Positions 3,667 to 53,256 are shown, counted from the first letter of the stretch. The stretch: DNA of 64,000 nt from Gammaproteobacteria bacterium (GCA_028285245.1 JANQPY010000036.1:11395-75394), one strand, 5' to 3'. Notes: generated by a model from the sequence alone, not told the origin. Program-made: numbers and translations.

Positions 3667-3682
3667 CGCGACGTGATGCGAC

Positions 3683-4993
3683 GTGATGCGACGTAGCGGC
3701 AAACGAAGTGATGGGCCCTTTTACGGCTGGGTGATTGCTGCAACCTGCTTTAGCATCTATTTCTTCACCAACGGTCTTGCCCTGTTCGTACCGCAGAATC
3801 TGTTTCCGCGTTATATGGAAACCTTTGGCGCGTCGCCAGGTGAGGTTAGCCGCACAACATTTCTCACCCTGGGCATTGCCGCGTTCATTGCCCCGCTGAT
3901 CGGCGCGATCGTTGATCGCATCGGCGTGGTGCGCGTCATTCGCACCGGCCTGATCGTGATGTCCATATGCCTTGCGTTCTACCCGTTCGCGCGCACGCTT
4001 AACGATTTGTATCTGTTGCACGCCGGGTTGGCGCTGGGACTGGTGCTATCGGGGCTCATGGCGAATGTCGTCCTGCTGTCGAACTGGTTTGTGCGCCGGA
4101 GGGGCGCGGTCGTTGGCATGCTGGCCGCCGGGTCAAGTCTGGCGGGCGGTATTCTGCCGCTGATGATCGCGCCGCTGGTAACCAACCCCGAGCTGGGCTG
4201 GCGTTACGGCTACGGCGCACTGGTCGTGGGATTCTGGCTGTTTGCTCTGCTGCCTGGACTGACACTTCTGCGCGAGCGACCGGCGGATATGGGCACACAC
4301 CCCGATGGGCAACCCATGGCGGCTGGTGGATCCGGGCCTGCGAAATCAAGTGAACACGCACTTAATGAGGGCGTTAATTTTTCCGTCGCCCTCAAGTCAC
4401 CGGCCCTTTACTTTCTAGCCCTCGGCTCTGCCTGCCTGTGGTACTCGATACAGGCCATGAATAGCCAGGTCACCATTTTCCTCGAGGAAGAGGGCGGCAT
4501 GGCGGCGGCTCGTGCCACGCTTATTTTCGCCCTTATTTTCTGGTGCAGTTTTCTGGGCAAATTCTCTTTCGGGTGGCTGAGCGACCGGCTTGCGAAACGC
4601 ACCGTGATGCAGATCACCAGCTCGATTCTGCTGGCCGGCTGCATGCTGTTGTTCGACTTTTCGGGCGGCGAGGTCTCGCTCACCACGACTCCGTGGAAAC
4701 TGTGGACCTTTGCGGTCGTATTCGGGCTGGGCTTCGGCGGCAGCTTCACCATGATTCAGCTTGTCGCTGTGGAGACATTTGGCAAGAAAGCACTCGGCAA
4801 GGTCCTCGGTATCATCACTTTCATTGATTCCCTGGGCGCTGCAGCCGGCACCATCATCAGCGGGCAGCTGCGCACAGAAACGGGCAGCTACCTGATTCCA
4901 TTCGCCATCATTACGGTCGTCGCGCTCATTGCGCTGGCGAATGTGCTGCTAATTCGGCCTGTTCGGCCCACGCCCGGAGCTGCGAAGGTTTAG
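3683..4993 (+). CDS. MFS transporter
   Basis: 436 aa with about 12 hydrophobic segments and an MFS-like loop 'VDRIGVVRVIR' after TM2. The start is GTG 3683 or ATG 3686. Confidence 0.8.
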   Translation: MMRRSGKRSDGPFYGWVIAATCFSIYFFTNGLALFVPQNLFPRYMETFGASPGEVSRTTFLTLGIAAFIAPLIGAIVDRIGVVRVIRTGLIVMSICLAFYPFARTLNDLYLLHAGLALGLVLSGLMANVVLLSNWFVRRRGAVVGMLAAGSSLAGGILPLMIAPLVTNPELGWRYGYGALVVGFWLFALLPGLTLLRERPADMGTHPDGQPMAAGGSGPAKSSEHALNEGVNFSVALKSPALYFLALGSACLWYSIQAMNSQVTIFLEEEGGMAAARATLIFALIFWCSFLGKFSFGWLSDRLAKRTVMQITSSILLAGCMLLFDFSGGEVSLTTTPWKLWTFAVVFGLGFGGSFTMIQLVAVETFGKKALGKVLGIITFIDSLGAAAGTIISGQLRTETGSYLIPFAIITVVALIALANVLLIRPVRPTPGAAKV

Positions 4994-5163
4994 CCAGGAG
5001 ACGGCCGCAGCGCCCGCGCCTCACGTCAGAGAAGCGGCGAAAATCGAACTTGCGTCAATCGGGCAGGTGTGGAAAATCTCGGTCCGCTTTCAGACTGCTG
5101 GCAACGTTAAACAGTAGATCCTTAGAGGCCGCGCTGCAGGGCACCAAGTGCACCGATCAGATA

Positions 5164-6099
5164 ATGATTAAAGCTGAGCATCTGACCAAGACGTACGGCC
5201 CGCTCACCGCAGTCGACGATTTGTCGTTCAAGGTTGAACCCGGTGAAGTGCTGGGTTTTCTCGGGCCCAACGGCGCGGGCAAAACGACAACGATGCGCAT
5301 GTTCGCCGGCTTCGTGCCGCCGACCTCCGGGCACGCCGAAATCTGCGGGTTTCGAGTCGATAACGATCCCATCGAGGCAAAGCGGCGGCTTGGCTACCTG
5401 CCGGAAGGCGCGCCCGCCTACGGGGAAATGACGCCGCGGGAGTTTCTGGAGTTCGTCGCTGCAGCCCGAGGCCTCAGGGGCAATGACAAACAGGAAAAGC
5501 TGAATCGCGTCATCACGCGGCTCAATCTCGGCCCCGTACTGGGGCAAAGCATCGAGACGTTATCAAAGGGCTTCAAGCGGCGCGTCGGTCTGGCGCAGGC
5601 CATCATCCATGATCCGCCGGTGCTGATTCTGGATGAGCCGACAGATGGCCTGGACCCGAACCAAAAGCACGAAGTGCGTGAACTCATCGCAGAAATGGCG
5701 TCCAACAAAATCATCGTCATTTCCACGCATATTCTTGAAGAGGTTGACGCCGTGTGTAACCGGGCGGTGATCGTGGCGAGCGGCAAGATCGTTGCAGATG
5801 AAACGCCCGGCTCGCTGATTCGCCAATCGCGTTATCACAATGCAGTCACGCTGAAATTCTCTAACCAGGACTCGCTCCAGGATGCAGGCAACACGCTGCG
5901 CGCTGTTCCCGCGATTGCCGATATCGAAATCGATGTCGACGCGGCGGCTATTACCGCGCTGCCTCGTGGCGAAGAGGCGCTGCTAGAGCCGATTGGCAAT
6001 CTGGTCCAGCAGCATAGCTGGCGTTTGCGCGAGCTAAAGCTGGAAAGCGGGCGGCTCGATGAAGTTTTTCGGCGCATCACCGCCGCAGGCACCGGGTAA
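5164..6099 (+). CDS. ABC transporter ATP-binding protein (GldA-like, ABC-2 type)
   Basis: Walker A GPNGAGKTT, signature LSKGFKRR, Walker B LILDEPTDGLD. I moved the start to ATG 5164 (MIKAEHLTKTYG), because the upstream extension looks non-coding. Confidence 0.9.
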   Translation: MIKAEHLTKTYGPLTAVDDLSFKVEPGEVLGFLGPNGAGKTTTMRMFAGFVPPTSGHAEICGFRVDNDPIEAKRRLGYLPEGAPAYGEMTPREFLEFVAAARGLRGNDKQEKLNRVITRLNLGPVLGQSIETLSKGFKRRVGLAQAIIHDPPVLILDEPTDGLDPNQKHEVRELIAEMASNKIIVISTHILEEVDAVCNRAVIVASGKIVADETPGSLIRQSRYHNAVTLKFSNQDSLQDAGNTLRAVPAIADIEIDVDAAAITALPRGEEALLEPIGNLVQQHSWRLRELKLESGRLDEVFRRITAAGTG

Positions 6100-6851: not shown

Positions 6852-8747
6852 ATGGGCGAGAGAATAACGTTGGGCCGCTTTGGCCTGGTCGCGCTGGCCG
6901 TGATGTTTGTCATCACAGTCACGCTCACCAACGGCATGATGCGGGGACTGCGGCTGGACCTGACAGAGAACCGGCTCTACACGCTGTCAGACGGCACCTA
7001 CCGCATTCTCGAGAACATTCCGGAACCCATCAATCTCTACTTCTATTACTCGGACCGTGCCACCGCCAACATTCCTGCACTGCGGGCCTACGCGGGCAGA
7101 GTAGAAGAAATGCTGCAGGAGTTTGCCCAGAATTCCGCCGGCAAACTGACCGTTAGGTTCGTAGATCCACTGCCGTTCTCAGAAGATGAAGATCGTGCGG
7201 CCGCTTTCGGGCTGCAGGAACTCGCACTGCCACAGGCGTCTGATCCGGTTTACTTCGGCATAGCCGGGACAAACAGTGTCGGTGACGAGGAGATCCTGCC
7301 GTTTCTGGAGCCGAGCAAGGAAGCCTTCCTCGAATACGACCTCGCCAAACTCATTCATACGCTCTCCGTAGTGGATCGCCCGGTGATTGGCCTGCTTTCA
7401 GGCCTGCAGATGACCGCCGGTTTCGACCCGGCGACTCAACAAATGACTCAGCCATGGGTCATCACTGATCAAATCAGTCAGCTGTTTGAGCTGCGCACGC
7501 TGGCCGCTGATGCGCAGACCATTGATGCAGACATTGACGTGCTGATGGTGGTGCATCCCAGCGACCTGTCTTCCGGCACGCTGTATGCGCTAGATCAGTT
7601 CATCCTGGCCGGAGGACGGGCGCTGCTGCTGGTTGATCCCTACGCGGAGGCGGACCGGCAGGCGCCGCCGGTGCCCGGCATGCCATCGGCAGGCGGCAGT
7701 TCCAGCCTCAATGCACTCATCAATGCATGGGGATTGAGCGTTGACCCTGAGAATGTAGTGGGCGATGACCGCTTGGCGCTGACTGTATCCGGCATGGGCA
7801 ATCAGCCGGTCCGGTATCTGCCCTTGCTGGGTCTGGACGCCACATCAATGAACCGCGAGGACGTGGTAACCGCCGGCGTCGACAACCTGAATCTGGGCTT
7901 CGCCGGGCATATTTCAGTGCAGGAAGATGCACCAGTAACCGTCACGCCCTTGCTGGAGTCCAGCGACCTGGCGGCTGAGATTCCGGCAGCCGGCCTGGGC
8001 ATGCTGCAGGACCCGGACACGTTGCGAGCCGGCTTCACGCCCACCGGCGAAACCTTCCTGCTGGCGGCCAGAGTGCAGGGTAACGTGCCGAGCGCTTTTC
8101 CGGCGGGTCCGCCCGCGCTGCCTGACAGCGATTTACAAATATCACCGGATACCGGCCACCTGGCTGAATCGGCCGAACCGATTAATGCAATTCTCGTGGC
8201 TGATACAGATCTGTTAACTGACCGGCTTTGGGTTCAGGTGCAGCCTTTCCTGGGACAGCGGTTGCTAACCGCTTTCGCGGGCAATGCCGACTTTATCAGT
8301 AACGCCCTTGACAACCTGTCAGGCAGTAACGACCTGATTAGCATTCGCGGCAGGGCAACGTATACGCGTCCATTCACGCGGGTACAGGAACTGCAGCGCG
8401 AGGCTGAGGCGCGGTTCCGCAACACCGAGCGCCAACTACAGGAAGAGCTTACCAACCTGGAAACGAAGCTTGCCGAACTGGAGACGGGCGCCAGCGACGA
8501 CAACCTGCTGCTGGTCAACCCGGCCCAACAAGCTGAACTCGAACGCTTCCAGGAAGAACGCCTGCGCATCCGGCGCGAGCTACGTCAGGTGCAACGGGAT
8601 CTGGATCAGGAGATCGAGGACCTGGGTACCCGGCTCACGGTCATCAACACGTTTCTTATACCGCTGATACTGACAGGTGCCGCCCTGGCCCTGGTCGTGA
8701 TCAGACGGCGCCGACGCGCCAGCGAATACGCGAGGCGCGCCGGGTGA
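6852..8747 (+). CDS. GldG-like ABC transporter auxiliary protein
   Basis: Starts 2 nt after the permease stop. It has an N-terminal TM segment, a large exported domain, a C-terminal coiled coil (ELQREAEARF...LETKLAELE), a TM segment and an RRRRR anchor, which is the usual GldG architecture. Confidence 0.7.
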   Translation: MGERITLGRFGLVALAVMFVITVTLTNGMMRGLRLDLTENRLYTLSDGTYRILENIPEPINLYFYYSDRATANIPALRAYAGRVEEMLQEFAQNSAGKLTVRFVDPLPFSEDEDRAAAFGLQELALPQASDPVYFGIAGTNSVGDEEILPFLEPSKEAFLEYDLAKLIHTLSVVDRPVIGLLSGLQMTAGFDPATQQMTQPWVITDQISQLFELRTLAADAQTIDADIDVLMVVHPSDLSSGTLYALDQFILAGGRALLLVDPYAEADRQAPPVPGMPSAGGSSSLNALINAWGLSVDPENVVGDDRLALTVSGMGNQPVRYLPLLGLDATSMNREDVVTAGVDNLNLGFAGHISVQEDAPVTVTPLLESSDLAAEIPAAGLGMLQDPDTLRAGFTPTGETFLLAARVQGNVPSAFPAGPPALPDSDLQISPDTGHLAESAEPINAILVADTDLLTDRLWVQVQPFLGQRLLTAFAGNADFISNALDNLSGSNDLISIRGRATYTRPFTRVQELQREAEARFRNTERQLQEELTNLETKLAELETGASDDNLLLVNPAQQAELERFQEERLRIRRELRQVQRDLDQEIEDLGTRLTVINTFLIPLILTGAALALVVIRRRRRASEYARRAG

Positions 8748-9745
8748 ACCTGCGCAGCCTGGTCATTGCGGCGGGCCTGCTCGCCTGCCTCGCGATTGCG
8801 AGCCTCCTGTTGGCGCCCAACGATTCCGCTAATTCGACAAGCGGTGAACTGTTTATGCCAGAGCTGGCCGCGCGCCTGAACGACGTTCGCCAGCTCAGCA
8901 TCACCGAAGCGGGCGGCAATACGACCGTCGTCATTCTGGGCGGCGATGCCGGCTGGCGTGTGTCCGAGGCAGATGGCTATCCGGCTGATGTAAGCAAGCT
9001 GCGCAGCAACCTGTCAGCGCTGGCGCAGGCTGAAGTTCAGGAGCAAAAAACAGCTCGCCCCGAACTCTACTCGCGGCTGGGCGTCGCCGACATCGGCAGC
9101 CCCGACGCCAGCGGCGTGCTGCTGCGCATCGACAATGAACTGGCCGTTATCGTCGGCGATACCGATGTCGCCGGCGGCAAGTCAGCTTATGTGCGCCGCC
9201 CCGAAGAGCAATCCAGCTATCAGATCTGCGCAGAGCTCTCCCTGGGTAGCGAGCCCAGGGACTGGCTGAACCGGCGCATTGTCGATATTCCAGCCAGTGA
9301 CATTCGGAGCGTTGCAATCACTCATCCTGATGGTGAAACGCTCAGGCTGTTCAAGCCATCGGCGGAGTCCGCGGAATTTGAGGTTGCAGGTATTCCGGAA
9401 GGCCGCGAGCTGACCTACGCGGGCGTCGGTAACTCGATCGGCGCGGCACTGTCGCGGCTTGATCTGGACAGCGTTGCCTCGGCAAGCGACGGCACCGCTC
9501 CGGATACCGCCGTGGTCACACGCTTTGAAACCTTCGCGGGGCTTACCGTTGTGGCGCGGAGCTGGCGCACAGGCGAAGATTTGCTGTTCACGTTTACTGC
9601 CACCGCCCCGGACGGCGCCGAGACAGACCTGCAAGATCAGGCAGACGCCATCAACGCTACGGCAAAAGGGTGGCAGTACGCCATCCCCGATTTCAAAGCC
9701 GATCAGTTCGTGAAACGCATAAGCGATCTGCTGGCTGCTACCTAG
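8744..9745 (+). CDS. DUF4340-like protein, fourth gene of the GldAFG-type operon
   Basis: GTGA start/stop overlap with the upstream gene, and an N-terminal TM/signal segment. The position after a gldG-like gene is typical for DUF4340. The family call rests on context only. Confidence 0.55.
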   Translation: MNLRSLVIAAGLLACLAIASLLLAPNDSANSTSGELFMPELAARLNDVRQLSITEAGGNTTVVILGGDAGWRVSEADGYPADVSKLRSNLSALAQAEVQEQKTARPELYSRLGVADIGSPDASGVLLRIDNELAVIVGDTDVAGGKSAYVRRPEEQSSYQICAELSLGSEPRDWLNRRIVDIPASDIRSVAITHPDGETLRLFKPSAESAEFEVAGIPEGRELTYAGVGNSIGAALSRLDLDSVASASDGTAPDTAVVTRFETFAGLTVVARSWRTGEDLLFTFTATAPDGAETDLQDQADAINATAKGWQYAIPDFKADQFVKRISDLLAAT

Positions 9746-28276: not shown

Positions 28277-29062
28277 TTACTCCGCCGGCCGCACCGCGTA
28301 GTCACCCCGCGGGCCCGTGCCTTTGCGCAAGTAGTACTCGAATACCCCGTCCCGATCGCCGGCCAGGAACGGCACCATGTAGAGCACTGCCATGCCCTCG
28401 AGATATCGCGCGTGACGGAGCGGCCCGAGATCGGCTGTTTCAAAGCCCAGCTCACGCACCAACGCCATTACTCGCCGCTTGGCCGCATCGTCGTCACCAA
28501 CGACTGGCACGGTAACCGGGCCTCCGGCCAGCAAGGGGTCGGCCATGATGTGCGCACCGATCGCGTTAAAGGCTTTCACGACACGCGCTCCGGGCGCCCA
28601 CTCCTGCACTAGCTCTGCCGACGAAGCATTGACGGCCATCTCCATTTGACCGCCGGGGCCCATGCGCAGTGGATTAGTGACATCAATAATCAACTTGCCC
28701 GCAAGATCCGGGACGCCCGCGAGCAGCACTTCCGTGGCATGCCAGGGAATCGCCAGCACAATGATTTCGGCAGCATCTGCCGCCTCCGGCACTGACGTTG
28801 CTCGACTTGCATCACCCGATCGCGCAACCAGCGCCTGGACAACATCGCGATCCGGCTCGCGCGAACCATAGACTACTGTGTGTCCCAGTTCAGCGAACCT
28901 CGGACCCAGGGCGCTGCCCACCCGTCCCGTCCCGAACACCGCCACAGTCTCAAGACCATTCACTGCGGGAGAGTTTTCCGCAACTGCACTGGGCGGGAGC
29001 AGCAGGCCGATCAGCAGAGCGGCCGGCGCTAACCGTCTCACGGTTTCAAGACACGGCCTCAC
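28277..29062 (-). CDS. NADP-binding Rossmann oxidoreductase (NADPH-dependent F420-reductase-like fold) with signal-like N-terminus
   Basis: Dinucleotide fold '[29 protein letters not shown]', preceded by '[20 protein letters not shown]'. Confidence 0.7.
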
Positions 29063-29875
29063 TTAGCCGTTGGCAACCTGACGAACCAAACCATCGGCAG
29101 AACGGTCCAGCTGGAGACCCGCAAAGTCGAACAGTTTGGTATCCGCAAGCTGGCTCGGCGCAATGTTCTGCATCGCCCTTAGGATGGCGTCAATACGACC
29201 AGGGGTCGCCTGCTCCCAGGCCTGCAGCATGGCTTTCACCTGCTGACGCTGAAGGTTTGGCTGAGAACCGCAGAGATTGCATGGGATGATCGGGAATGCG
29301 CGTAGTTCCGCATAGCGGGCCAGGTCCCGTTCGGCACAGTAAGCCAGCGGCCGAATGACCACATTGCGTCCGTCGTCCGCCCTCAGCTTGGGCGGCATAG
29401 CTGCAAGCCGGGAACCAAAAAACATGTTAAGAAAAAGCGTCTCAACGATGTCATCTCGGTGGTGGCCGAGTGCGATCTTGGTTGCAGAAATCTTCTCGGC
29501 GAAACCGTAGAGCGTCCCGCGCCGAAGCCGCGAGCACAGACTGCAGGTCGTGCGGCCTTCTGGAATCTTCTCACGGACAATTGAATACGTGTCTTTCTCG
29601 ACAACGTGATACTCGATACCCAGAGTGTCCAGATACTCAGGCAAGACGTGACCCGGAAAACCCGGCTGTTTCTGGTCCATGTTGACGGCAACAATGTCGA
29701 AATCGACTGGCGCGCGTTGCCTTAGCAGCAGCAAAACATCGAGCAAGGCATAGGAATCCTTACCGCCCGACAGGCACACCATAATCCGGTCGCCGGCCTC
29801 TATCATGCGATAGTCTTCGATCGCCTTGCCCACGCTCCGGCACAACCGTCGCTGCAGTTTGTCGAGATTTGCCAT
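29063..29875 (-). CDS. ttcA: tRNA 2-thiocytidine(32) synthetase
   Basis: PP-loop 'VCLSGGKDS'. The N-terminus '[31 protein letters not shown]' parallels E. coli TtcA. I prefer ATG 29875. Confidence 0.9.
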
Positions 29876-29928
29876 GGTTACTGTTGGTGCGCCGCGGTCG
29901 AGGTAGCCAGGGAGTCGCTGGACCAAAC

Positions 29929-30414
29929 TCAGTTACGTTGCGGACTGATCAGATGGTCAAGCGACAGCTTGCCAGGGCCGTAGACCAGAACAGGCAGCAG
30001 CATTGCTGCCCAGGGGAGATGAAAATTCGCCCAGGCGTCGGGAATGGTCAACTGAATTACCAGGGTCATGGCCAGCAGGCCCAGCGCCGCGAAGCGCGTA
30101 CCCAGACCCAGGACCAGAAGAATGGGCAGGGCCGTCTCCCCCAAACCAGAAAGCAGCGCCATAAGATCGGGTGCCGGATAGGCAAACTCGCTGCCGAACA
30201 GATGCAGCTTGAACTCATTCGCGAACAGGTACTTGGCACCAGGCGATACTTCGAAGAAGCCGCTGAACTTTGTAAGCCCGGACTTCCAAAACGGCAGCGC
30301 TACTGTCACACGCAGGAGCAGCTGCACCAGCGAGGCGGGTATCTTGTTGGCCAGGCCCGCAAACCAGCTGAGTGGATTGCTTCTGATCAAGATCTGCTTG
30401 GTCGTGTCATTCAT
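29929..30414 (-). CDS. DoxX family membrane protein (fourth gene of the bufferin-type cluster)
   Basis: Four TM segments and the DoxX-like block '[19 protein letters not shown]'. ATG 30414 has AAGGA 8 nt upstream. Confidence 0.8.
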
Positions 30415-30425
30415 TGTGAAGGTCC

Positions 30426-31196
30426 TTAACTTTCCTGCAGACGCCAACCGGTCACTGCGGCACTCTCAAGCAGGCCCTGCAGATTAATAGCCAAATCAAA
30501 ATGCGGATGTGACTCGCGGGCCAGAGCCGTCGCCGCGCCAAGCGTATCCGCAGCCTGCAAGGATCGCAAAAATACCAGCCCACCCGGGGGCAGCCGGTGA
30601 ACTTTTACTGCGTCCGCTGGACGCATCACCAGCGCGTCTTCGCCTTCGTCCTGAAGCTCGAGCAACTCGGTTCGCTCGCCGTCCGAATGCGCCTCCCACA
30701 GAGTGATGATGGGCCACTGTGAGTCCACCAGTTCCAAGGACGGATGCAAATCGAAGCTCAAACGCGGCACGTCGGCTTCTGCACAGTCCAACAGGCTATC
30801 CGGTTGCAGGCTTGCAGCATCTGCCGCGTGATAGGCGCGCCGGCGAGCCAGCTCCAGCCTGGCCACATCGGGCAGGTAAGGCAGGGAGTTCGCGGGCTCG
30901 AACGCGTGAATAAACTCTGGGAACTCCTGACCGTAATGCAGCAGCACAGGCGACTCGGGCAGGTGACTCTTAACAAAGACTCGGGCCATGGCAGCAAAGA
31001 ATTCCTCACCAACCAGCTGCTGTACCACGGGGAAACTCTGCGCCAGCGCCTCTATCAGGCTAACGTGGATGTTGTTGCGGTACACGTTGAAACGCTGCCC
31101 GGCCGTGACCGCGCCTGCATCAACTACCTCAGACGGCGGTGGCAACGATGCCTCGAACAGCGCCGTGCTGAATCGTTGCTGTAGCTCAGTGCGCAT
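30426..31196 (-). CDS. bufC: DUF2063 protein, MNIO partner (BufC-like)
   Basis: The DUF2063 N-terminal block 'QRFNVYRNNIHVSLIEAL'. ATG 31196 overlaps the bufB stop by 11 nt. Confidence 0.8.
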   Translation of the reverse strand: MRTELQQRFSTALFEASLPPPSEVVDAGAVTAGQRFNVYRNNIHVSLIEALAQSFPVVQQLVGEEFFAAMARVFVKSHLPESPVLLHYGQEFPEFIHAFEPANSLPYLPDVARLELARRRAYHAADAASLQPDSLLDCAEADVPRLSFDLHPSLELVDSQWPIITLWEAHSDGERTELLELQDEGEDALVMRPADAVKVHRLPPGGLVFLRSLQAADTLGAATALARESHPHFDLAINLQGLLESAAVTGWRLQES

Positions 31197-32088
31197 GGTT
31201 CGCCAGACAGGAGGACTCCTGCCTCCCAAGTGCAGCAGCCGCGGTCATCACCTCGCCCGCCAGTATGGACCAGGCAGGTAGCTCGTTGTCCCACTCCACC
31301 AGGACCGGGACTGCGCCGATCTGGTCTAAAGCAACGTCCAACAACTGCCATACGTCGTTTGCAACCAGACGATCATGACTGTCAATCAACAGATCAGCAC
31401 CGCCGGCATCAGCAGCGTGGCCGGCAACGTGTATCTCGCCCACCAGCTCGGCCGGAAATTGCTTGATGTAGTCCACCGCGTCAAAACCATGATTGTGTGC
31501 CGACACGAAGACGTTGTTGACGTCGAGCAACAGGCCACAGCCAGTCTTCGCAGAGACTTCGCGAAGAAAATCGATCTCTGAGAAACGGCTGGTGTCGAAG
31601 CGCAAATAAGTGGCCGGATTTTCCAGCAGCAGACTTCGCGCGAGATGCTCCTGCGCCAGCTCGACATGTTCGACGACACGTGCAAGTGCTGCATCATCGT
31701 AGGGCAACGGCAACAGGTCGTTCAGATACTTTCCGTCGTGCGCAGTCCAGGCCAGGTGCTCGGAAAACAATTCGGGCTGATAACGATCGATGAGCTTCCG
31801 CAGCCGCGTAAGATGATCACGGTCCAGGGGACCTTCACCACCAAGCGAGAGGCCTACCCCATGCAGCGACAGCGGGTAAGCCTCCCGCAGCGCTTCGAGA
31901 CAGGCGTGGGGCGGCCCACCGTCGCCCATGAAGTTTTCCGGATGCACTTCGAACCAGCACAGATCCGGATAGGCTTGTTCGTTTACTTCCGCGAGCGCGT
32001 CGCGGTAGTGAGGATTGCGCAGACCCGCACCGGCGCCCGCAAGCGCCGGTGCAGTCCTCGGGGCCGCTGGATTCGCGTGAGGCGTCAT
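31186..32088 (-). CDS. bufB: DUF692 multinuclear non-heme iron oxidative (MNIO) enzyme (BufB/MbnB family)
   Basis: DUF692 blocks are all present: GAGLRNPHY, WFEVHPENF, LHGVGLSLGG, FSEHLAW, LLENPATY, LLLDVNNVFVSAHNHG, EIHVAGH. Confidence 0.9.
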   Translation of the reverse strand: MTPHANPAAPRTAPALAGAGAGLRNPHYRDALAEVNEQAYPDLCWFEVHPENFMGDGGPPHACLEALREAYPLSLHGVGLSLGGEGPLDRDHLTRLRKLIDRYQPELFSEHLAWTAHDGKYLNDLLPLPYDDAALARVVEHVELAQEHLARSLLLENPATYLRFDTSRFSEIDFLREVSAKTGCGLLLDVNNVFVSAHNHGFDAVDYIKQFPAELVGEIHVAGHAADAGGADLLIDSHDRLVANDVWQLLDVALDQIGAVPVLVEWDNELPAWSILAGEVMTAAAALGRQESSCLANHAH

Positions 32089-32131
32089 GTCAACGCACGC
32101 TCACCAACAGCCGGGTCAACAGGCGCCCGGA

Positions 32132-32440
32132 TTAGGGCAGATCGCGATCCAGCGCGGTCAGGCTCCCCTTGCGGTCGCCGGGCAACTCGATCGATTCGCA
32201 GGTCCCTTTCGGAACGAGCTTCCAGGCATTGCCCTGATAGTCGACGACGGAGCTGCCAGAACAGGTTGTTCCGGGACCCGCGGCACAATCATTCTTGCCT
32301 GCCTCAGAGACGCCGAAGCACTTTTCCATCTCGCTTGAGTGGCCGCCCGCCACTGCATTGTTGGCGGTCAGCGAAACTGCTCCAACAGCCAGCGTCAGCG
32401 CGCCGGCGAGCCCGGCAGTCTGCTTGTAGATCGTCTTCAT
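32132..32440 (-). CDS. bufA: DUF2282 bufferin-type RiPP precursor (Sec signal plus 4-Cys core)
   Basis: Signal peptide [32 protein letters not shown]. Core '[26 protein letters not shown]...[12 protein letters not shown]' has the four conserved Cys of DUF2282 in the usual spacing. Confidence 0.85.
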
Positions 32441-32562
32441 CAGATTGATTCCTCTAGCATTTATTAATGACGCCGCAATGCGGCCCCTCTCCTGTGAGCG
32501 ATACCCCGGCGAATAGTTCCCCAGGTACCGGACACAACGTCAGCCCTGCGGCCACCCGCAGG

Positions 32563-34749
32563 CTACCGCATAACGCGCACGGCGGTGGACTTAAACGCTG
32601 GCGTCTTGCTACGTGGATCCACGGTGGTGCCCGTAAGCACGTTGGCTTCAGGGAAGTACGCCATCAGATTGCCACGGGGCAAATCGAACGGGTGCACACG
32701 GACAGCGTCCATCTGGCCATGCGCCGAACGTAGCTTCACCCGGTCGCCCTCAGCCAGACCGAGCTCTGCCATATCCCGCGTGTTCATCATCACCGACCAT
32801 CGGTCGGTCGTACCGCGGTACGCATCGTCATACTCATACACGATCGTATTGAACTGCCCTTCACTGCGCGCCGTGGTGAGCGTGAATTCGCTGGCCTGCT
32901 CAGCCGGTGTGGCAACAACCCGAAACATGGCTTTGCCGGAAGGCGTATTGACTTCAGGCGTGTGCAGCAGGCGGCCGCGCACATGAAACTCGCGCCGCGC
33001 CACATCAATGTCTGCGAGTTCCTCCATCCCGGGCACGGTGCGAGCGATGGCCTGGCGAACCTTGCGATGACTGCCAAACTCACCAAAGTTCACTCGCGAG
33101 TCACTGACAATCCTTCCGCCGAGATCACTCAGAATATCGACCTCGGGCCGCACGCCATCCAGCCGATCAATACCGCCATCGCTGAGACGGACGAAATTGA
33201 ACATCGACTCCTGCGTTGTAGGCTGCCGCTCCTCGTCTCGCGCAGTTACCGGCAGAACCAGACATTCACCGGCATCGATGCCGTGCACATGTCCGGTGTT
33301 CAAGGTGGTTGTCAGGAACACCTTGAAACCGATGCGGTCCAGGGCGGCTGCGGTCCAGGCCGCATTGGGATTGGCGCCGTAGAGATTGCCCCCCATCATC
33401 AGTGCCACATCGATCTCGCCCCTGGCCGCGGCCTGCATGCAGGCCATCGTGTCCTTGCCAGCACCCTGAGGCAGTGAAACGCCCAGTTCGCTCTCAAGAC
33501 GGTGGAACACCTCTTCGGGCAGCACCGGCTTCACGCCGATGGTGCCGATGCCCTGGACGTTGCTGTGGCCACGCAGCGGCAACAGCCCCGCCCCGGGCCG
33601 GCCCAACATTCCGCGCAGGAGGGCCAGCGCGGTCAGCGCCTCGATGTTTTGCACACCATGCAGGTGATGCGTCAGCCCCATGCCCCAGGCGAATACCGCG
33701 TTTTTGGCGCGCGCATAGCAGGCGGCCGCGCGTTCGATATCTGCGCGGGACACGCCGCTGTGTTGCTCAATAGCCGGCCAGTCCTGACTTTTAATGTCGG
33801 CCAGGTAGTCAGTGAACCCCTCGGTGAAGCGGCCAATGAACGCATCGTCTGCGGCGTTGCTCTCGATTATTGCTTTGGCCAGTCCTTTAAACAGTGCGAT
33901 GTCGCCGCCGATACGTGGCTGGAGATACTCGCTGGCGATCCAGCTACCACCGGTGAGCATGGACTTGGCGCTGCGGGGCACGGCGAAGCGCACCAGTCCA
34001 GGCTCTTTGGCCGGATTAATAACCACGACCTGCCCGCCGCGGTCGCGACAAGCCTTGAGCTTGTGCATGAAACGCGGATGGTTCGATGCGGGATTGGCAC
34101 CCACCACGAAGATCAGGTCGCAACGATCAAGATCTGCGAGCTCTACCGTCGCCGTACCGGTGCCGATGGTAGCCCCGAGCGCAACGCTCGTGGCCTGATG
34201 GCAATAGTAGGAACAGTTGTTGACGTTGTTGGTCCCATACAGACGAGCCAGAAGCTGCAGAACGAAACCCGCCTCGTTAGATGAGCGTCCGGACGAATAG
34301 AAAAATGACCTGTCCGGTGATGTTTCTCGAAACCGCTGACCGGCGAGATCCATGGCCGCGCCCCACCCGATGCGTCGATAGCGTGGATCGCCGGCTGCCT
34401 TGTACAGTGGAAAGTTCAGGCGGCCCAGGTGCTCGAGCTGGTGGCCGTTGAGTTCCCTCAGCTCAGCCACCGGATGCTGGAAGATGGCTTCAGGAATCGG
34501 CGGCTGAATATCTGTGGACTGTGCCTGAACACTCTTGTTGCAGATGGCCGGAAACTCGCCCAGCTCATTCGTCATGCCACCGCGCTGTCCGCCCATCCCC
34601 AGCCCGCAGGCCTTGCAGGTGTTCTTCGTCTTGAGCGCGGTCGCGGTGTTTTTCAGGCCAATACGCTGCGCAGTCCTCAGCGTATAGAGGACCTTGCTGG
34701 CCCCGCCGCCAATGCGCGGGCGCGTGTGCTCGCTGGCAGGCTTGGTCAT
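32563..34749 (-). CDS. FdhF/YdeP family molybdopterin oxidoreductase
   Basis: N-terminal Cys cluster 'CKACGLGMGGQRGGMTNE...AICNKSVQA', and length typical of the YdeP subgroup. The start is ATG 34749 or the longer 34827. Confidence 0.85.
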   Translation of the reverse strand: MTKPASEHTRPRIGGGASKVLYTLRTAQRIGLKNTATALKTKNTCKACGLGMGGQRGGMTNELGEFPAICNKSVQAQSTDIQPPIPEAIFQHPVAELRELNGHQLEHLGRLNFPLYKAAGDPRYRRIGWGAAMDLAGQRFRETSPDRSFFYSSGRSSNEAGFVLQLLARLYGTNNVNNCSYYCHQATSVALGATIGTGTATVELADLDRCDLIFVVGANPASNHPRFMHKLKACRDRGGQVVVINPAKEPGLVRFAVPRSAKSMLTGGSWIASEYLQPRIGGDIALFKGLAKAIIESNAADDAFIGRFTEGFTDYLADIKSQDWPAIEQHSGVSRADIERAAACYARAKNAVFAWGMGLTHHLHGVQNIEALTALALLRGMLGRPGAGLLPLRGHSNVQGIGTIGVKPVLPEEVFHRLESELGVSLPQGAGKDTMACMQAAARGEIDVALMMGGNLYGANPNAAWTAAALDRIGFKVFLTTTLNTGHVHGIDAGECLVLPVTARDEERQPTTQESMFNFVRLSDGGIDRLDGVRPEVDILSDLGGRIVSDSRVNFGEFGSHRKVRQAIARTVPGMEELADIDVARREFHVRGRLLHTPEVNTPSGKAMFRVVATPAEQASEFTLTTARSEGQFNTIVYEYDDAYRGTTDRWSVMMNTRDMAELGLAEGDRVKLRSAHGQMDAVRVHPFDLPRGNLMAYFPEANVLTGTTVDPRSKTPAFKSTAVRVMR

Positions 34750-34934
34750 GGACTTACCGGACGATGCGTGACGCTCACTACTGGCGCTAAGCTCACAGCC
34801 GCTTTGCGCTCGATGGTAGGGTGGCACAAACCCAGCGGCAACCAGATCTGGCGGCCCTTCAAATCACCCGCCAAAACAGGGTTAAATCGCGGTTCAGGCA
34901 CACGGTTCCCAGCTCATATCCGGAGATAGTTCTC

Positions 34935-35531
34935 ATGCGTCAGTCATTTCTCGTACTACTCGTTTCCGCCACCTGTTTTTTCGCTGGCCCGGTTATGGCC
35001 GGTGGCCACAGCGGAAGCGCTCAGGGAGCCGCGGAGGGCGCTATGGGCGGTGGCGCCATGGCGAACCCGTTCAATCCCCAGCAGATGCCGGACATTGTGG
35101 CGCTCAAGGCCAAAGACGTGGAAAACATGATTGGCTCGGTCAAAGAACTTAAAGCGATTGGTATTGACTCGGAAATCGATGAAGACGCCGACATGAACAG
35201 CTGGGGTCAACAGCTCGCGCAAAACAACAGGGCCATGAATGTGCTTGACGACTACGGGTTCAACATCGAGAGCTTCCAGGAAGTTGCCTACAGCATCGCG
35301 ATGGCAATGGGCGCGGCCGAAATGAAAAAAAGCGGGGTTGGCTCGGCCGATCAGATGCAGCAACAGAAGCAGATGATGGAACAGCTAAAGGGGCAGATGA
35401 ACGCACAGCAGTTCGCGCAGATGCAGCAGCAGCTGGCTGCCGCAAACCAGATGATGGAGCAGATAAAAGACCAGCCGCCCGGCAACATCGCGCTCGTCGA
35501 ACAGTACCGGTCGCAGCTGGAAGCTCTCTGA
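34935..35531 (+). CDS. exported Met/Gln-rich hypothetical protein
   Basis: ATG 34935 with GGAGA 8 nt upstream and signal peptide MRQSFLVLLVSATCFFAGPVMAGG. The C-terminal region is 'MQQQKQMMEQLKGQMNAQQFAQMQQQLAAANQMMEQIKDQ'. Confidence 0.65.
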   Translation: MRQSFLVLLVSATCFFAGPVMAGGHSGSAQGAAEGAMGGGAMANPFNPQQMPDIVALKAKDVENMIGSVKELKAIGIDSEIDEDADMNSWGQQLAQNNRAMNVLDDYGFNIESFQEVAYSIAMAMGAAEMKKSGVGSADQMQQQKQMMEQLKGQMNAQQFAQMQQQLAAANQMMEQIKDQPPGNIALVEQYRSQLEAL

Positions 35532-35591
35532 GCCGATCTACATTTAGGCAGCGGGCAGGCTGAGATGTTATCGCCAGCGTAGCGAGGACCC

Positions 35592-36347
35592 ATGTTTGAG
35601 CTGGCTGGAGTCACCAAGCGCTATGGCGACGTGCTTGCGCTGGATGCGGTTGATCTTGAAATCGAATCAGGCACAACCTGCGTCCTCATTGGCCCATCCG
35701 GCTGCGGTAAATCGACGCTGCTGCGTACGCTGATCGGGCTGGTCCAGCCTGATCAGGGCCGCGTCAACATTGACAGTGAACGGGCAACGGCCAAACGCTG
35801 GCCGGAACTACGGCAGCGCATTGGCTATGTGGTGCAGGATGGCGGCCTGTTTCCGCACCTGACGGCCCGTGACAACGTCACGCTGATGGCCCGGCAGCTA
35901 GGGTGGACGGAAGCGCGGATAGCGGAGCGGACCTCTGCGCAGTGCGCGCTGACCAGCTTTCCGACGGATGCCCTCACGCGTTATCCCGGCGAGCTGTCCG
36001 GTGGCCAGAATCAAAGGGTCGCACTCATGCGCGCGCTGTTTCTGGATCCTCAGGTCTTGTTGCTTGATGAGCCCCTGGGCGCGCTTGATCCAATGATTCG
36101 CCACGGCCTTCAGGTCGATCTGAAGAGCATCTTTGACAAGCTGCACAAAACAGTCGTCATGGTGACTCACGACCTTGCCGAGGCCGCCTACTTCGCTGAT
36201 CAGATCATCCTGTTGCGCGACGGCCAGGTCGTGCAAAGTGGCAGCGCGGAAAGTCTCATGCAGCGCCCCGCGGAACCTTTTGTCACCCGCTTCGTCCAGG
36301 CACAACGGGCTCAGTGGGCAGCGCCCGATGCGCAACGCTCTCCCTGA
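35592..36347 (+). CDS. ABC transporter ATP-binding protein (OpuB/OsmV-like, no CBS domains), no cognate permease adjacent
   Basis: Walker A GPSGCGKST, signature LSGGQNQRV, Walker B LLLDEPLGALD, H-loop VTHD. Confidence 0.85.
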   Translation: MFELAGVTKRYGDVLALDAVDLEIESGTTCVLIGPSGCGKSTLLRTLIGLVQPDQGRVNIDSERATAKRWPELRQRIGYVVQDGGLFPHLTARDNVTLMARQLGWTEARIAERTSAQCALTSFPTDALTRYPGELSGGQNQRVALMRALFLDPQVLLLDEPLGALDPMIRHGLQVDLKSIFDKLHKTVVMVTHDLAEAAYFADQIILLRDGQVVQSGSAESLMQRPAEPFVTRFVQAQRAQWAAPDAQRSP

Positions 36348-37129
36348 TGGAACCGGCAGATCTTGTCCGCTTAAGCCAGGATGACACGCATGTAGTCCAC
36401 CGATCACAGCGCGAACCCGGGTTTGCAGTACGCGAAGCGCAGGGCGTGCGCTGGCTGACGAGTGCAGACGGCACGCTGCAGTCCGCGATGCGCATTGACG
36501 CGCCGGCCGACCCCGCCCTCCCCAATCATCTACTCATGCTGGCCGCCTTGCTGCTGTGTCCACAGCCGGAGCGCAGTCTTGAACTCGGCAGTGGGGTTGG
36601 CGCTATCGAGCGCTTTCTGGCCGACCGGTTTGCGGACACAACCCGCACCTGCGTGGACAGTTGTGCTGAGCTCACCCAGATCGGGCGAGAGTTCTTCGGC
36701 ATGCCCAGCGACTGGCAACCGGTGCAGATACGCGCCGCGGACTACCTGAAGCAATCTGATCAGCGCTACTCGCTGATCTTTGCAGATCTTTTTGACGGCG
36801 CCGCGCATTCGGACTGCGTTGCCGACGAGGCGTTCTACGCAGACTGCGCAGACCATCTGGAAGATGAGGGCGCAGTGGCGATTAACCTCTCGCCGGAGTC
36901 AGAATCGGACCTGCTTGCGCTGCTGCTGCAGATGCGAAAGCATCTGCCGTGGGTGTCGCTTGCAGCCGTGCCTGAACACGGCAATATTGTGGCGGTTGCC
37001 ACCAAGTCCGAACCGCCGGATGACGGTACGCTGCGACAACGAGCGAAGTATCTCGGCGAAAGCTGGCGACTAGATTTGGCCGGCGCCCTGCAGCGGCTGG
37101 AGCGCCTGCCCCCGCCAGCGGCCCAATAA
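36347..37129 (+). CDS. spermidine-synthase-like class I methyltransferase-fold protein
   Basis: ATG 36347 overlaps the upstream TGA (TGATG). SAM motif I 'SLELGSGVGAIERFL' and 'SLIFADLFDG'. Confidence 0.6.
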   Translation: MEPADLVRLSQDDTHVVHRSQREPGFAVREAQGVRWLTSADGTLQSAMRIDAPADPALPNHLLMLAALLLCPQPERSLELGSGVGAIERFLADRFADTTRTCVDSCAELTQIGREFFGMPSDWQPVQIRAADYLKQSDQRYSLIFADLFDGAAHSDCVADEAFYADCADHLEDEGAVAINLSPESESDLLALLLQMRKHLPWVSLAAVPEHGNIVAVATKSEPPDDGTLRQRAKYLGESWRLDLAGALQRLERLPPPAAQ

Positions 37130-52242: not shown

Positions 52243-53256
52243 ATGCATGAGCGTATAGCTCTGAACGGGCGCAGCCGCGCACGAACCACTACTTATCACT
52301 CACGCAGCTCTGCGCGGCTTCGCTACCTCATGGCGTTGGGCGCACTGGTTGCCGTTCTGCTGACGCTGTTCGCGGGGCGCGCGCAGGCAATCAGCTTCAC
52401 TCAGCTCGTCGCATTCGGCGACAGCCTGTCTGACACCGGCAACGTTTCTGCCAATACCGGGGGACTCCTGCCACTGCCTCCTTACACTCCTGGTAGATTT
52501 ACGAACGGTCCGGTCTGGATAGAGACCTTTGCCAGCAATCTTGGATTAAGCGCTGTAGCTTCAAACACAGGTGGCACAAATTACGCGCATGGGGGCGCCG
52601 TAACCGGTGCACCGCTATCCAGCTCGTTTCCTTCTCTAAGTCTGACGGATCAGATGAGTCAGTACCTGACTGACACAGGTGGGTTTGCTGATCCCAATGC
52701 GCTGTATGTCATTTGGGGCGGCGGCAACGACGTGCGTGATGGCGACGTTACCGGGTCAGCCGCCAACATTGCCGCAATGGTGACTAATCTTGCGGGGGCG
52801 GGCGCTAGTAACTTTCTGGTAGCGAATCTGCCCGATGTCGGGCTAACACCGGAAGCACAAGGCTTTGGACCGGTAGCCGCGGCTGGCGCGACGTTTCTTT
52901 CCACGACCCACAATGCCAATCTGGCGGCCGAGATGGCAACGTTGCGAGGTTCTCTTGGCGTATCAATTTTTGAGCTGGATGTGTTTGGCTTCCTTAATGA
53001 TGTGATTGCAAACAACTCTTTCGGCATCACAAACACGACCGATGCATGCTATGACGGTGTCACAGGCACTGGTGGAGCGGGAACTGTCTGCAGTGACCCA
53101 GATTCACACCTGTTCTGGGATGGCATTCACCCCACCGCCGCTGCGCATGCCGCGCTGGGTAATTTCGCGAGCACCGTCGTGCCGGTGCCCGCCGCCGTGT
53201 GGTTATTTGGCTCGGCACTGGGTCTCCTGGGCTGGGTACGCCGCAAGGCAGCCTGA
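52243..53256 (+). CDS. SGNH/GDSL lipase-esterase with PEP-CTERM-like C-terminal sorting tail
   Basis: Block I 'AFGDSLSDTGN', block III 'IWGGGNDV', block V 'LFWDGIHPT'. The C-terminus is 'VPVPAAVWLFGSALGLLGWVRRKAA'. The start is ATG 52243 or 52330. Confidence 0.88.
   Translation: MHERIALNGRSRARTTTYHSRSSARLRYLMALGALVAVLLTLFAGRAQAISFTQLVAFGDSLSDTGNVSANTGGLLPLPPYTPGRFTNGPVWIETFASNLGLSAVASNTGGTNYAHGGAVTGAPLSSSFPSLSLTDQMSQYLTDTGGFADPNALYVIWGGGNDVRDGDVTGSAANIAAMVTNLAGAGASNFLVANLPDVGLTPEAQGFGPVAAAGATFLSTTHNANLAAEMATLRGSLGVSIFELDVFGFLNDVIANNSFGITNTTDACYDGVTGTGGAGTVCSDPDSHLFWDGIHPTAAAHAALGNFASTVVPVPAAVWLFGSALGLLGWVRRKAA

Follow-up and report, generated by a model that had tools for sequence, protein, structure and literature searches.

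Does a block of four genes in an uncultured gammaproteobacterium encode a working bufferin, and if so, what would switch it on? The block (29929-32440, minus strand) lies in a 64,000-nucleotide (nt) stretch of DNA from a Gammaproteobacteria bacterium (GCA_028285245.1, JANQPY010000036.1:11395-75394), here called the window, from whose first letter positions are counted. An original prediction made from this sequence had read the genes as a bufferin-type cluster, that is, a peptide precursor followed by a modifying enzyme, its partner protein, and a membrane protein. The cluster is one more canonical member of the large, already described bufferin 1 family, and we conclude with a probability of roughly 0.85 that it constitutes a complete, intact Buf1-type operon, bufABCD, with an overall mechanism resembling that of Caulobacter. 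To judge from its sequence, the cluster is ordinary except in two respects, a promoter that is likely read by a stress sigma factor and an additional copper-binding tip predicted on the peptide.

Gene Content and Integrity of the Cluster

The sequence of the block reads as four tightly packed minus-strand genes arranged A-B-C-D, the commonest gene order among relatives (105/240 loci retrieved by the time of the count, 80 of them ttcA loci). Based on the definition of a Buf1-type cluster in Leprevost et al. 2024 and Antoine et al. 2025, every defining feature that can be tested in sequence is present, which bears out the predicted operon architecture, and the hidden Markov model searches suggested together with that prediction (DUF2282, DUF692, and DUF2063) all returned matches above the Pfam cut-offs.

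The first gene, bufA (32440-32132, minus strand; GAGGAA 8 nt before the ATG), encodes a precursor of 102 amino acids, inside the 80-120 residues expected of DUF2282 bufferin precursors. As originally described, it combines a Sec-type leader with a four-cysteine DUF2282 core, matching PF10048 with 86.4 bits (cut-off 22.4) over profile positions 1-50 of 53. The leader has lysines at K2 and K6 in its n-region, a hydrophobic core of 17 residues, and the residues AVA (-3 to -1) just ahead of G32; the cleavage site was read from the sequence by rule and not by a trained predictor, giving a predicted signal peptide of residues 1-31 (32440-32348, minus strand) and a predicted 71-residue core that begins GGH (32347-32135, minus strand). 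Cys41, Cys52, Cys60, and Cys81 (core Cys10/21/29/50) follow one another at distances of 11/8/21, identical to the spacing in Caulobacter BufA1, in which the core cysteines are Cys12/23/31/52 (PMC11626156). All 12 columns that are invariant across 70 homologs are kept in BufA, the four cysteines being among them. More than 7,900 homologs were retrieved at E <= 1e-10, some of them named "BufA1 family periplasmic bufferin-type metallophore." In an AlphaFold2 model, strands span residues 38-42 and 73-77 and a short helix residues 81-83, with Cys41 in the first strand and Cys81 at the helix; a two-stranded sheet plus short helix is the fold of Caulobacter Buf1, verified by nuclear magnetic resonance (PMC11626156). 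The predicted local distance difference test score (pLDDT) of the model is below 50 at residues 1-3, 24-26, and 28-34, and when residues 1-30 are averaged in blocks the means are about 50.

After a gap of 43 nt follows bufB (32088-31186, minus strand), encoding a 300-residue DUF692 enzyme that belongs by family to the multinuclear non-heme iron oxidative enzymes (MNIOs). It scores 362.3 bits against the NCBIfam equivalog NF050167 (MNIO_BufB; curated cut-off 310) and 334.5 bits against PF05114 (MbnB_TglH_ChrH), and falls far under the NCBIfam cut-offs of HvfB, ApyH, MbnB, and ChrH. Its closest solved structure is the DUF692 protein 3BWW (E = 6e-40), followed by TglH and MbnB. The claim that all conserved blocks of the enzyme are present agrees with an alignment of 156 BufB sequences, in which every column conserved at >=97% is retained and T115, mostly Ser elsewhere, is the sole departure from the majority. 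The near-invariant positions retained include H49, H76, H111, E156, D189, H220, D236, H238, and E265, nine His/Asp/Glu residues that, by analogy with MbnB, presumably serve as iron ligands.

The most plausible start of bufC (31196-30426, minus strand; 256 amino acids) is the ATG at 31196-31194, the alternative being a longer open reading frame (ORF) started by TTG from 31229. As the bufB stop ends at 31186, the two genes overlap by the 11 nt that had been predicted. An overlap of the same length occurs in the three relatives with listed gene calls (L321, 2723-2733; L323, 2791-2801; L324, 5685-5695, each in the coordinates of its own locus), and its conservation suggests that the enzyme and its partner are translationally coupled. 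BufC matches PF09836 (DUF2063) with 95.6 bits over residues 15-107 of the scanned 267-residue TTG-started ORF, corresponding to residues ~4-96 of the 256-residue protein. No sequence match to BufC was found in the PDB; its AlphaFold2 model (pLDDT 93.6, predicted template modeling score 0.89) has a C-terminal alpha/beta, RRE-like domain, and the top Foldseek matches are chain A of the TglHI holoenzyme (8hi7_A/8hci_A), which we read as the MNIO partner TglI, and 3DEE (NGO1945), the founding DUF2063 structure, with E-values from 1e-7 (8hi7_A) to 4e-6 (3DEE).

The cluster closes, as foreseen, with a gene for a DoxX-family membrane protein directly 3' of bufC. The most likely start of bufD (30414-29929, minus strand) is the ATG at 30414, with AAGGA 8 nt upstream, which makes the protein 161 amino acids long and not the 172 of a TTG-started ORF. 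BufD contains hydrophobic segments and matches PF07681 (DoxX) with 61.4 bits; against the HvfX family NF050144 it scores 59.8 bits, under the cut-off of 80.

Some observations weigh against an intact operon and would suit a decaying or silent remnant that yields no functional product. BufB occupies a long terminal branch (0.63) and shares no more than 62% identity with its relatives, its conserved residues nonetheless being kept, and BufC is 48% identical to its nearest relative. Moreover, no RNA run contains the locus. The sole sequencing run found to contain the window is a coral metagenome, and the runs that contain the locus or go with it are three DNA runs from a single coral-metagenome study. 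We nevertheless regard a remnant as barely credible, given four intact ORFs with ribosome-binding sites, retention of all invariant residues, and a GC content at third codon positions (0.65-0.73) that matches neighboring genes and the rest of the window, as well as synteny, an 11-nt overlap, and an upstream promoter motif that are conserved across the clade to which the locus belongs.

Predicted Function and Comparison with Known Systems

Homology to the buf1 system of Caulobacter vibrioides is the ground on which we predict how an intact operon of this type would work here. BufA would be made as a 102-residue precursor and, in the cytoplasm, BufB together with BufC would use O2 to form 5-thiooxazole rings from the two central cysteines, Cys52 and Cys60 (Cys21 and Cys29 of the core). 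The Sec machinery would export the peptide, signal peptidase would cut after Ala31, and Cys41 and Cys81 would join as a disulfide. The folded 71-residue peptide would be retained in the periplasm, where it would sequester copper at very high affinity and buffer the envelope against copper stress, with BufD as an accessory membrane protein dispensable for modification.

Caulobacter Buf1 carries 5-thiooxazoles, binds copper 1:1 via two nitrogen and two sulfur atoms, and protects against copper, with dissociation constants of ~6 x 10^-15 M for Cu(II) and ~7 x 10^-20 M for Cu(I). That system needs BufB and BufC, but neither modification nor protection depends on DoxX (PMC11626156). The thiooxazole assignment was later confirmed by isotope labeling (bioRxiv 10.64898/2025.12.15.693703). 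For mature Buf1, a mass shift of -10 Da has been reported, the sum of two four-electron oxidations and one disulfide, so the shift of about -4/-8 Da that had been expected for the modified core does not agree with the reported value.

The window shares with the Caulobacter operon buf1ABCD (CCNA_03363-03366; PMC11626156) the same four families in the same order, including a Sec leader, identical Cys spacing, the same predicted precursor fold with a CysI-CysIV disulfide, a BufB-equivalog MNIO, and a DUF2063 partner with an RRE-like C-terminal domain. The two differ in that the Caulobacter operon is copper-induced under adjacent SigF/NrsF control, whereas the window has no adjacent regulator and a sigma-E-type motif, and in that the predicted core has 71 residues with a GGH start in the window but 68 residues in Caulobacter Buf1. 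Sinorhizobium meliloti likewise has four genes with DUF692 and DUF2063 members (SMb20530-20527; PMC6180224), controlled by RpoE7, a sigma factor of the extracytoplasmic function (ECF) type, through a mapped promoter, TGTAAC-N16-CGAAT, with rpoE7 and an anti-sigma gene adjoining; this promoter motif is not found in the window. The gig (gold-induced genes) operons of Cupriavidus metallidurans and Legionella pneumophila contain orthologous DUF2282/DUF692/DUF2063/DoxX genes induced by transition metals (PMC11626156), but they belong to other lineages, are under metal-responsive regulation, and, unlike the window, lack a ttcA/YdeP neighborhood.

More distant comparisons are offered by the oxazolin system of Haemophilus influenzae (HvfA-HvfB-HvfC-HvfX), fontiphorin, and bulbicupramide, which share the MNIO subfamily, a DUF2063 partner, and DoxX, as well as a Sec-exported precursor, conversion of Cys to 5-thiooxazole, and a copper-binding product. 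The oxazolin-type precursor, however, is an EGKCG-repeat peptide and that of the window a DUF2282 protein, and BufB and BufC, like BufD, stay below the cut-offs of their Hvf counterparts (235.9 versus 360 for HvfB and 50 versus 142 for HvfC). In methanobactin synthesis an MNIO and its partner (MbnB and MbnC) also modify cysteines of a ribosomal peptide (MbnA) into a copper chelator, but this system is distant: BufB scores 65 bits against the MbnB equivalog (cut-off 325), and methanobactin has oxazolone/thioamide chemistry, is secreted for copper acquisition, and carries a leader peptide rather than a Sec signal.

A Candidate Stress-Sigma-Factor Promoter

In line with the original prediction that no metal sensor, ECF sigma/anti-sigma pair, or copper ATPase adjoins the cluster, none of the 20 neighboring proteins, which cover ~10 kb on each side, is a sigma or anti-sigma factor, a metal or two-component sensor, a regulator of the MerR/CueR type, or a copper/P-type ATPase. 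Among 130 relatives with enough upstream sequence, NrsF is encoded upstream in 29 and an ECF sigma factor in 21; an adjacent sigma/anti-sigma pair is absent in most relatives, and its absence here is therefore no bar to Buf1 membership. Published surveys also list bufferin clusters that have no regulator.

Upstream of bufA lies a candidate ECF promoter of the sigma-E/AlgU type (32520-32493, minus strand), consisting of GGAACTA (32520-32514) and TCACA (32497-32493) separated by 16 nt, with 52 nt between the end of the latter, the -10 element, and the start codon of bufA. The Pseudomonas AlgU consensus GAACTT-N16/17-TCTGA corresponds to this motif, and so does the sigma-E consensus. In Escherichia coli, sigma-E recognizes a -35 element GGAACTTTT and a -10 element (T/C)GGTCAAAA with a preferred spacer of 16 nt, in short GGAACTT-N16-TCAAA (PMC1312014).

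The motif recurs in related loci. In the BufB tree, the window groups with L081, L321, L323, and L324 as one clade (support 100/99), and GGGAACTTTT-N12/13-GGTTCnnA is found upstream of bufA in these four relatives and in L164, L166, and L222, with GGTTC(A/T/C)(C/G)A on the -10 side and a spacer of 16 nt. The copies read GGGAACTTTCCCTAGGGACCGGGTTCTGA in L081, GGGAACTTTTGCACACAGAACGGTTCACA in L321, GGGAACTTTTGCACACAGAATGGTTCACA in L323, and GGGGAACTTTTCGCCCGGTCAGGGTTCTCA in L324, whereas L164, L166, and L222, which form a second gammaproteobacterial clade, have GGGAACTTTT...GTTC(C/G)GA. Altogether, the motif is present in 5/5 members of the window's BufB clade and at eight distinct loci over two clades. 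Within the former it starts 73-89 nt before the bufA ATG. In the window, L321, and L323 it occupies a noncoding spacer, but in L081 and L324 it extends over the final codons at the 3' end of ydeP, and the sequence flanking it differs between loci. Elsewhere it is rare: a strict pattern matched 0 of ~180 other Buf1 loci, and a looser one matched 1/80 loci from a BufA metagenome scan, which yielded no closer relatives and no GGH start and was used as a negative control. Shuffled upstream regions match at a rate of ~3% per 200 nt. A SigF-type motif, TGTAAC-N15-19-CG(A/T), is present in 37 other Buf1 loci and absent from the window, and is the motif reported for the RpoE7-controlled operon of S. 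meliloti; in the gammaproteobacterial TGTAAC examples inspected, the upstream gene is divergent and a second TGTAAC lies on the opposite strand. Two further sigma-E-like matches in the window (53080, plus strand, and 29309, minus strand) lie within coding sequence and were discounted as random matches.

Two features count against a sigma-E-type promoter: the window's copy is the most degenerate of the eight (GGAACTA instead of GGAACTT, and no GGT before TC), and a GGAAC -35 element is common to many ECF groups, so that the motif does not identify its cognate sigma factor. It is conceivable, if rather unlikely, that GGAACT-N16-TCnnA is not a working promoter or is read by another ECF sigma factor, with bufA transcribed by read-through from ydeP or from an unrecognized promoter and the recurrence of the motif reflecting shared ancestry. 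The gene ydeP is on the same strand, with a hairpin after it that has no U tract; a scan for sigma-70-type promoters across 28900-35700 found none, leaving nothing else predicted either; and in L081 and L324, where it coincides with part of the ydeP coding region, the motif may be constrained for other reasons. Yet the motif is kept both where ydeP is present (the window, L081, and L324) and where it is not (L321, L323, L164, L166, and L222), the surrounding sequence cannot be aligned between the two kinds of loci, and its distance from bufA is similar within the window's clade. The motif agrees with sigma-E promoters in its two half-sites and in the 16-nt spacing that they favor, and it is essentially missing from the other Buf1 loci. 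On this evidence we lean, by a small measure, toward a working promoter that some ECF sigma factor reads. That this factor is specifically a sigma-E/AlgU ortholog encoded elsewhere is a tentative suggestion, which we hold at less than even odds; if true, the operon would be tied to a general envelope-stress sigma factor encoded away from the locus.

Genomic Neighborhood and Relatives

The cluster had been described as wedged between ttcA and a YdeP-type molybdoenzyme, and both flanks are confirmed. The gene ttcA (tRNA 2-thiocytidine synthetase; 29063-29875, minus strand; NF007972, 469 bits) lies 53 nt downstream of bufD, and an FdhF/YdeP-family molybdopterin oxidoreductase (32563-34827, probable ATG at 34749, minus strand; TIGR01701, 660 bits versus a cut-off of 582) lies upstream of bufA. 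The impression of an oddity of this genome does not hold, however, because the neighborhood at ttcA is shared by the clade. In the closest locus, L081 (metagenome-assembled genome [MAG] MO_074.B1), a divergent Met/Gln-rich protein gene and a YdeP-like oxidoreductase gene are followed by bufABCD and ttcA, with identities to the window of 81% for BufA, 79% for BufD, 78% for TtcA, 68% for YdeP, 62% for BufB, and 48% for BufC. The three relatives reached via the closest BufA proteins (L321, L323, and L324) all have bufABCD and then ttcA, and the order bufD-ttcA is kept in L081, L163, L321, L323, and L324. This clade-wide order marks the ttcA neighborhood as inherited synteny of an uncultured gammaproteobacterial clade; TtcA itself is most similar to proteins of uncultured Gammaproteobacteria (78% and 76%). 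The YdeP-like gene is found upstream of bufA in L081 and L324 and is absent in L321 and L323, which rules out YdeP as an obligate member of the cluster.

In a first scan the best BufB matches were alphaproteobacterial (56-58% identity), which raised the possibility of horizontal transfer from Alphaproteobacteria. Such transfer is unsupported, as the nearest BufB (62%) and the syntenic block in its entirety are found in gammaproteobacterial MAGs within the 100/99 clade and the backbone of the BufB tree is unresolved.

Directly after the ydeP-like stop lies a GC-rich hairpin, GCCTGCGG-GTGG-CCGCAGGGC (32543-32563, minus strand), in a 130-nt intergenic region with a fold of -54.5 kcal/mol (z = -2.49), and it may act as a terminator or stabilizer for the upstream gene. 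The bufA-bufB spacer folds no better than its shuffles (z = 0.08) and the bufD-ttcA spacer contains no terminator-like structure (z = +1.0), giving no sign of an attenuator or terminator in either. Similarly, a scan for intrinsic terminators over 28900-35700 returned background terminator-like matches only, none of them at gene ends. With no significant structure between bufD and ttcA, nothing argues against read-through, and ttcA may be cotranscribed with the buf operon.

Several other features of the window and of its relatives were recorded. An ABC ATPase gene (35592-37129, plus strand) lies on the upstream side of the buf block, divergent from the buf genes; its location and direction are unchanged in L321, L323, and L324, with a permease/OpuAC fusion adjoining it in L324, and its conserved position makes it part of the conserved neighborhood and not of the buf cluster. 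Directly after ttcA is a gene for an F420/NADP-oxidoreductase-like protein with an apparently signal-peptide-like N-terminus (28277-29062, minus strand); the L081 ortholog is 65% identical, and there an epimerase gene intervenes between it and ttcA. In a Pseudomonas sp. MAG (L108), a more distant bufABCD (3047-5478) lies ~2.5 kb from ttcA (8001-8801) in opposite orientation; this is the only such proximity seen outside the window's clade and is probably a coincidence. Two gammaproteobacterial MAGs of the second clade encode BufA1 homologs (L166, ~3966-4268; L222, ~3932-4234) with a lipobox, ALALAGC, and a linker of ~25 residues rich in Asp, Gly, Ser, and Gln ahead of the DUF2282 core. These are probably lipoprotein-anchored Buf1 bufferins; a published bufferin survey reports lipoprotein signal peptides for Buf2 only. 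Farther away in the window, an exported 337-residue ORF (52243-53256, plus strand) has GDSL-lipase-like motifs, with FGDSLSD near the N-terminus, and ends in VPVPAAVWLFGSALGLLGWVRRKAA, resembling a PEP-CTERM sorting signal.

A Predicted Gly-Gly-His Start on Two Exported Proteins

Cleavage of BufA at the site predicted by rule (AVA, residues 29-31, before G32) would leave a mature peptide starting NH2-Gly-Gly-His-Ser. An N-terminus of the form NH2-X-X-His is known as the amino-terminal binding motif for Cu(II) and Ni(II) (ATCUN; PMC12509749), and BufA could by this means gain a second Cu(II)/Ni(II) site, a possibility we raise with some reserve. Two things weigh against it. The closest relatives start AHA|ADMEKC or similarly, with no GGH, indicating that GGH is not needed for the function of the family. 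Moreover, the cleavage site is a rule-based prediction, and cleavage one or two residues away would abolish the motif. The GGH start is nearly unique among the ~350 BufA homologs whose N-termini were compared (sets of 147, 80, and 120): their His is nearly always at position -2 of an AHA cleavage site and not at mature position 3, and the sole other ATCUN candidate among them is P0100 (ANA|DSH).

A second gene in the window shares this feature. Divergent from the ydeP-like gene is a gene for an exported Met/Gln-rich protein of 198 residues (34935-35531, plus strand), with a mature start predicted, again by rule, as VMA|GGHSGS (cleavage before G23) and a mature part containing 14% Gln and 9% Met. 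The protein matches no Pfam family, and a search of 5.8 billion proteins returned only itself; an L081 ortholog in the equivalent position shares 46% identity with it and has no GGH. GGH after a signal-peptide-like segment occurs in only two real genes in the window, bufA and this neighbor. Provided that the cleavage sites predicted by rule are right, this suggests that two periplasmic proteins acquired Cu(II)-binding tips in this lineage specifically. The Met/Gln-rich protein would by the same token be linked to copper.

What the Locus May Mean for the Bufferin Family

Copper detoxification need not be the main role of the peptide even if cluster and chemistry are as described here; it could serve against envelope or oxidative stress more broadly, or bind another metal such as Ni(II). 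All characterized members bind copper, Caulobacter Buf1 selecting it from a metal mixture, and the metal-binding residues are fully conserved, on which grounds we consider a noncopper role improbable. Such a role would accord with regulation through a general envelope-stress sigma factor in place of a metal-responsive SigF/NrsF pair, and the candidate promoter, being of the sigma-E and not the SigF type, speaks for it, but metal stress can itself elicit a response from sigma factors of this kind. Other points in its favor are the absence of copper genes within 10 kb, the binding of Ni(II) by ATCUN motifs, and the roles beyond copper proposed by the authors of PMC12452194. A Buf1 peptide that buffers copper by a mechanism of the Caulobacter kind is the reading we retain.

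A more far-reaching scenario, which we offer as speculative and consider unlikely, is that the clade has been rewired: buf would have moved from a dedicated, metal-responsive SigF/NrsF switch to a general envelope-stress sigma factor of the sigma-E/AlgU type and may be cotranscribed with the Fe-S enzyme gene ttcA, and in the organism of the window the bufferin and its Met/Gln-rich neighbor would have gained GGH ATCUN starts, yielding a two-protein periplasmic copper buffer with separate Cu(II) (ATCUN) and Cu(I) (thiooxazole and Met) sites.

Among MNIO-modified peptides, bufferins make up the largest family known, and they give bacteria a recently recognized, widespread route for coping with copper; one more canonical cluster adds little to that picture. 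The locus does indicate, however, that a clade of marine and uncultured Gammaproteobacteria, in which the buf operon is stably linked to ttcA, apparently drives buf1 from a sigma-E-type promoter, unlike the SigF-type promoters of Caulobacter and Sinorhizobium, and this bears on which stresses call up bufferins. Its rare predicted ATCUN start would provide a natural variant for asking about a second copper ion in bufferins.

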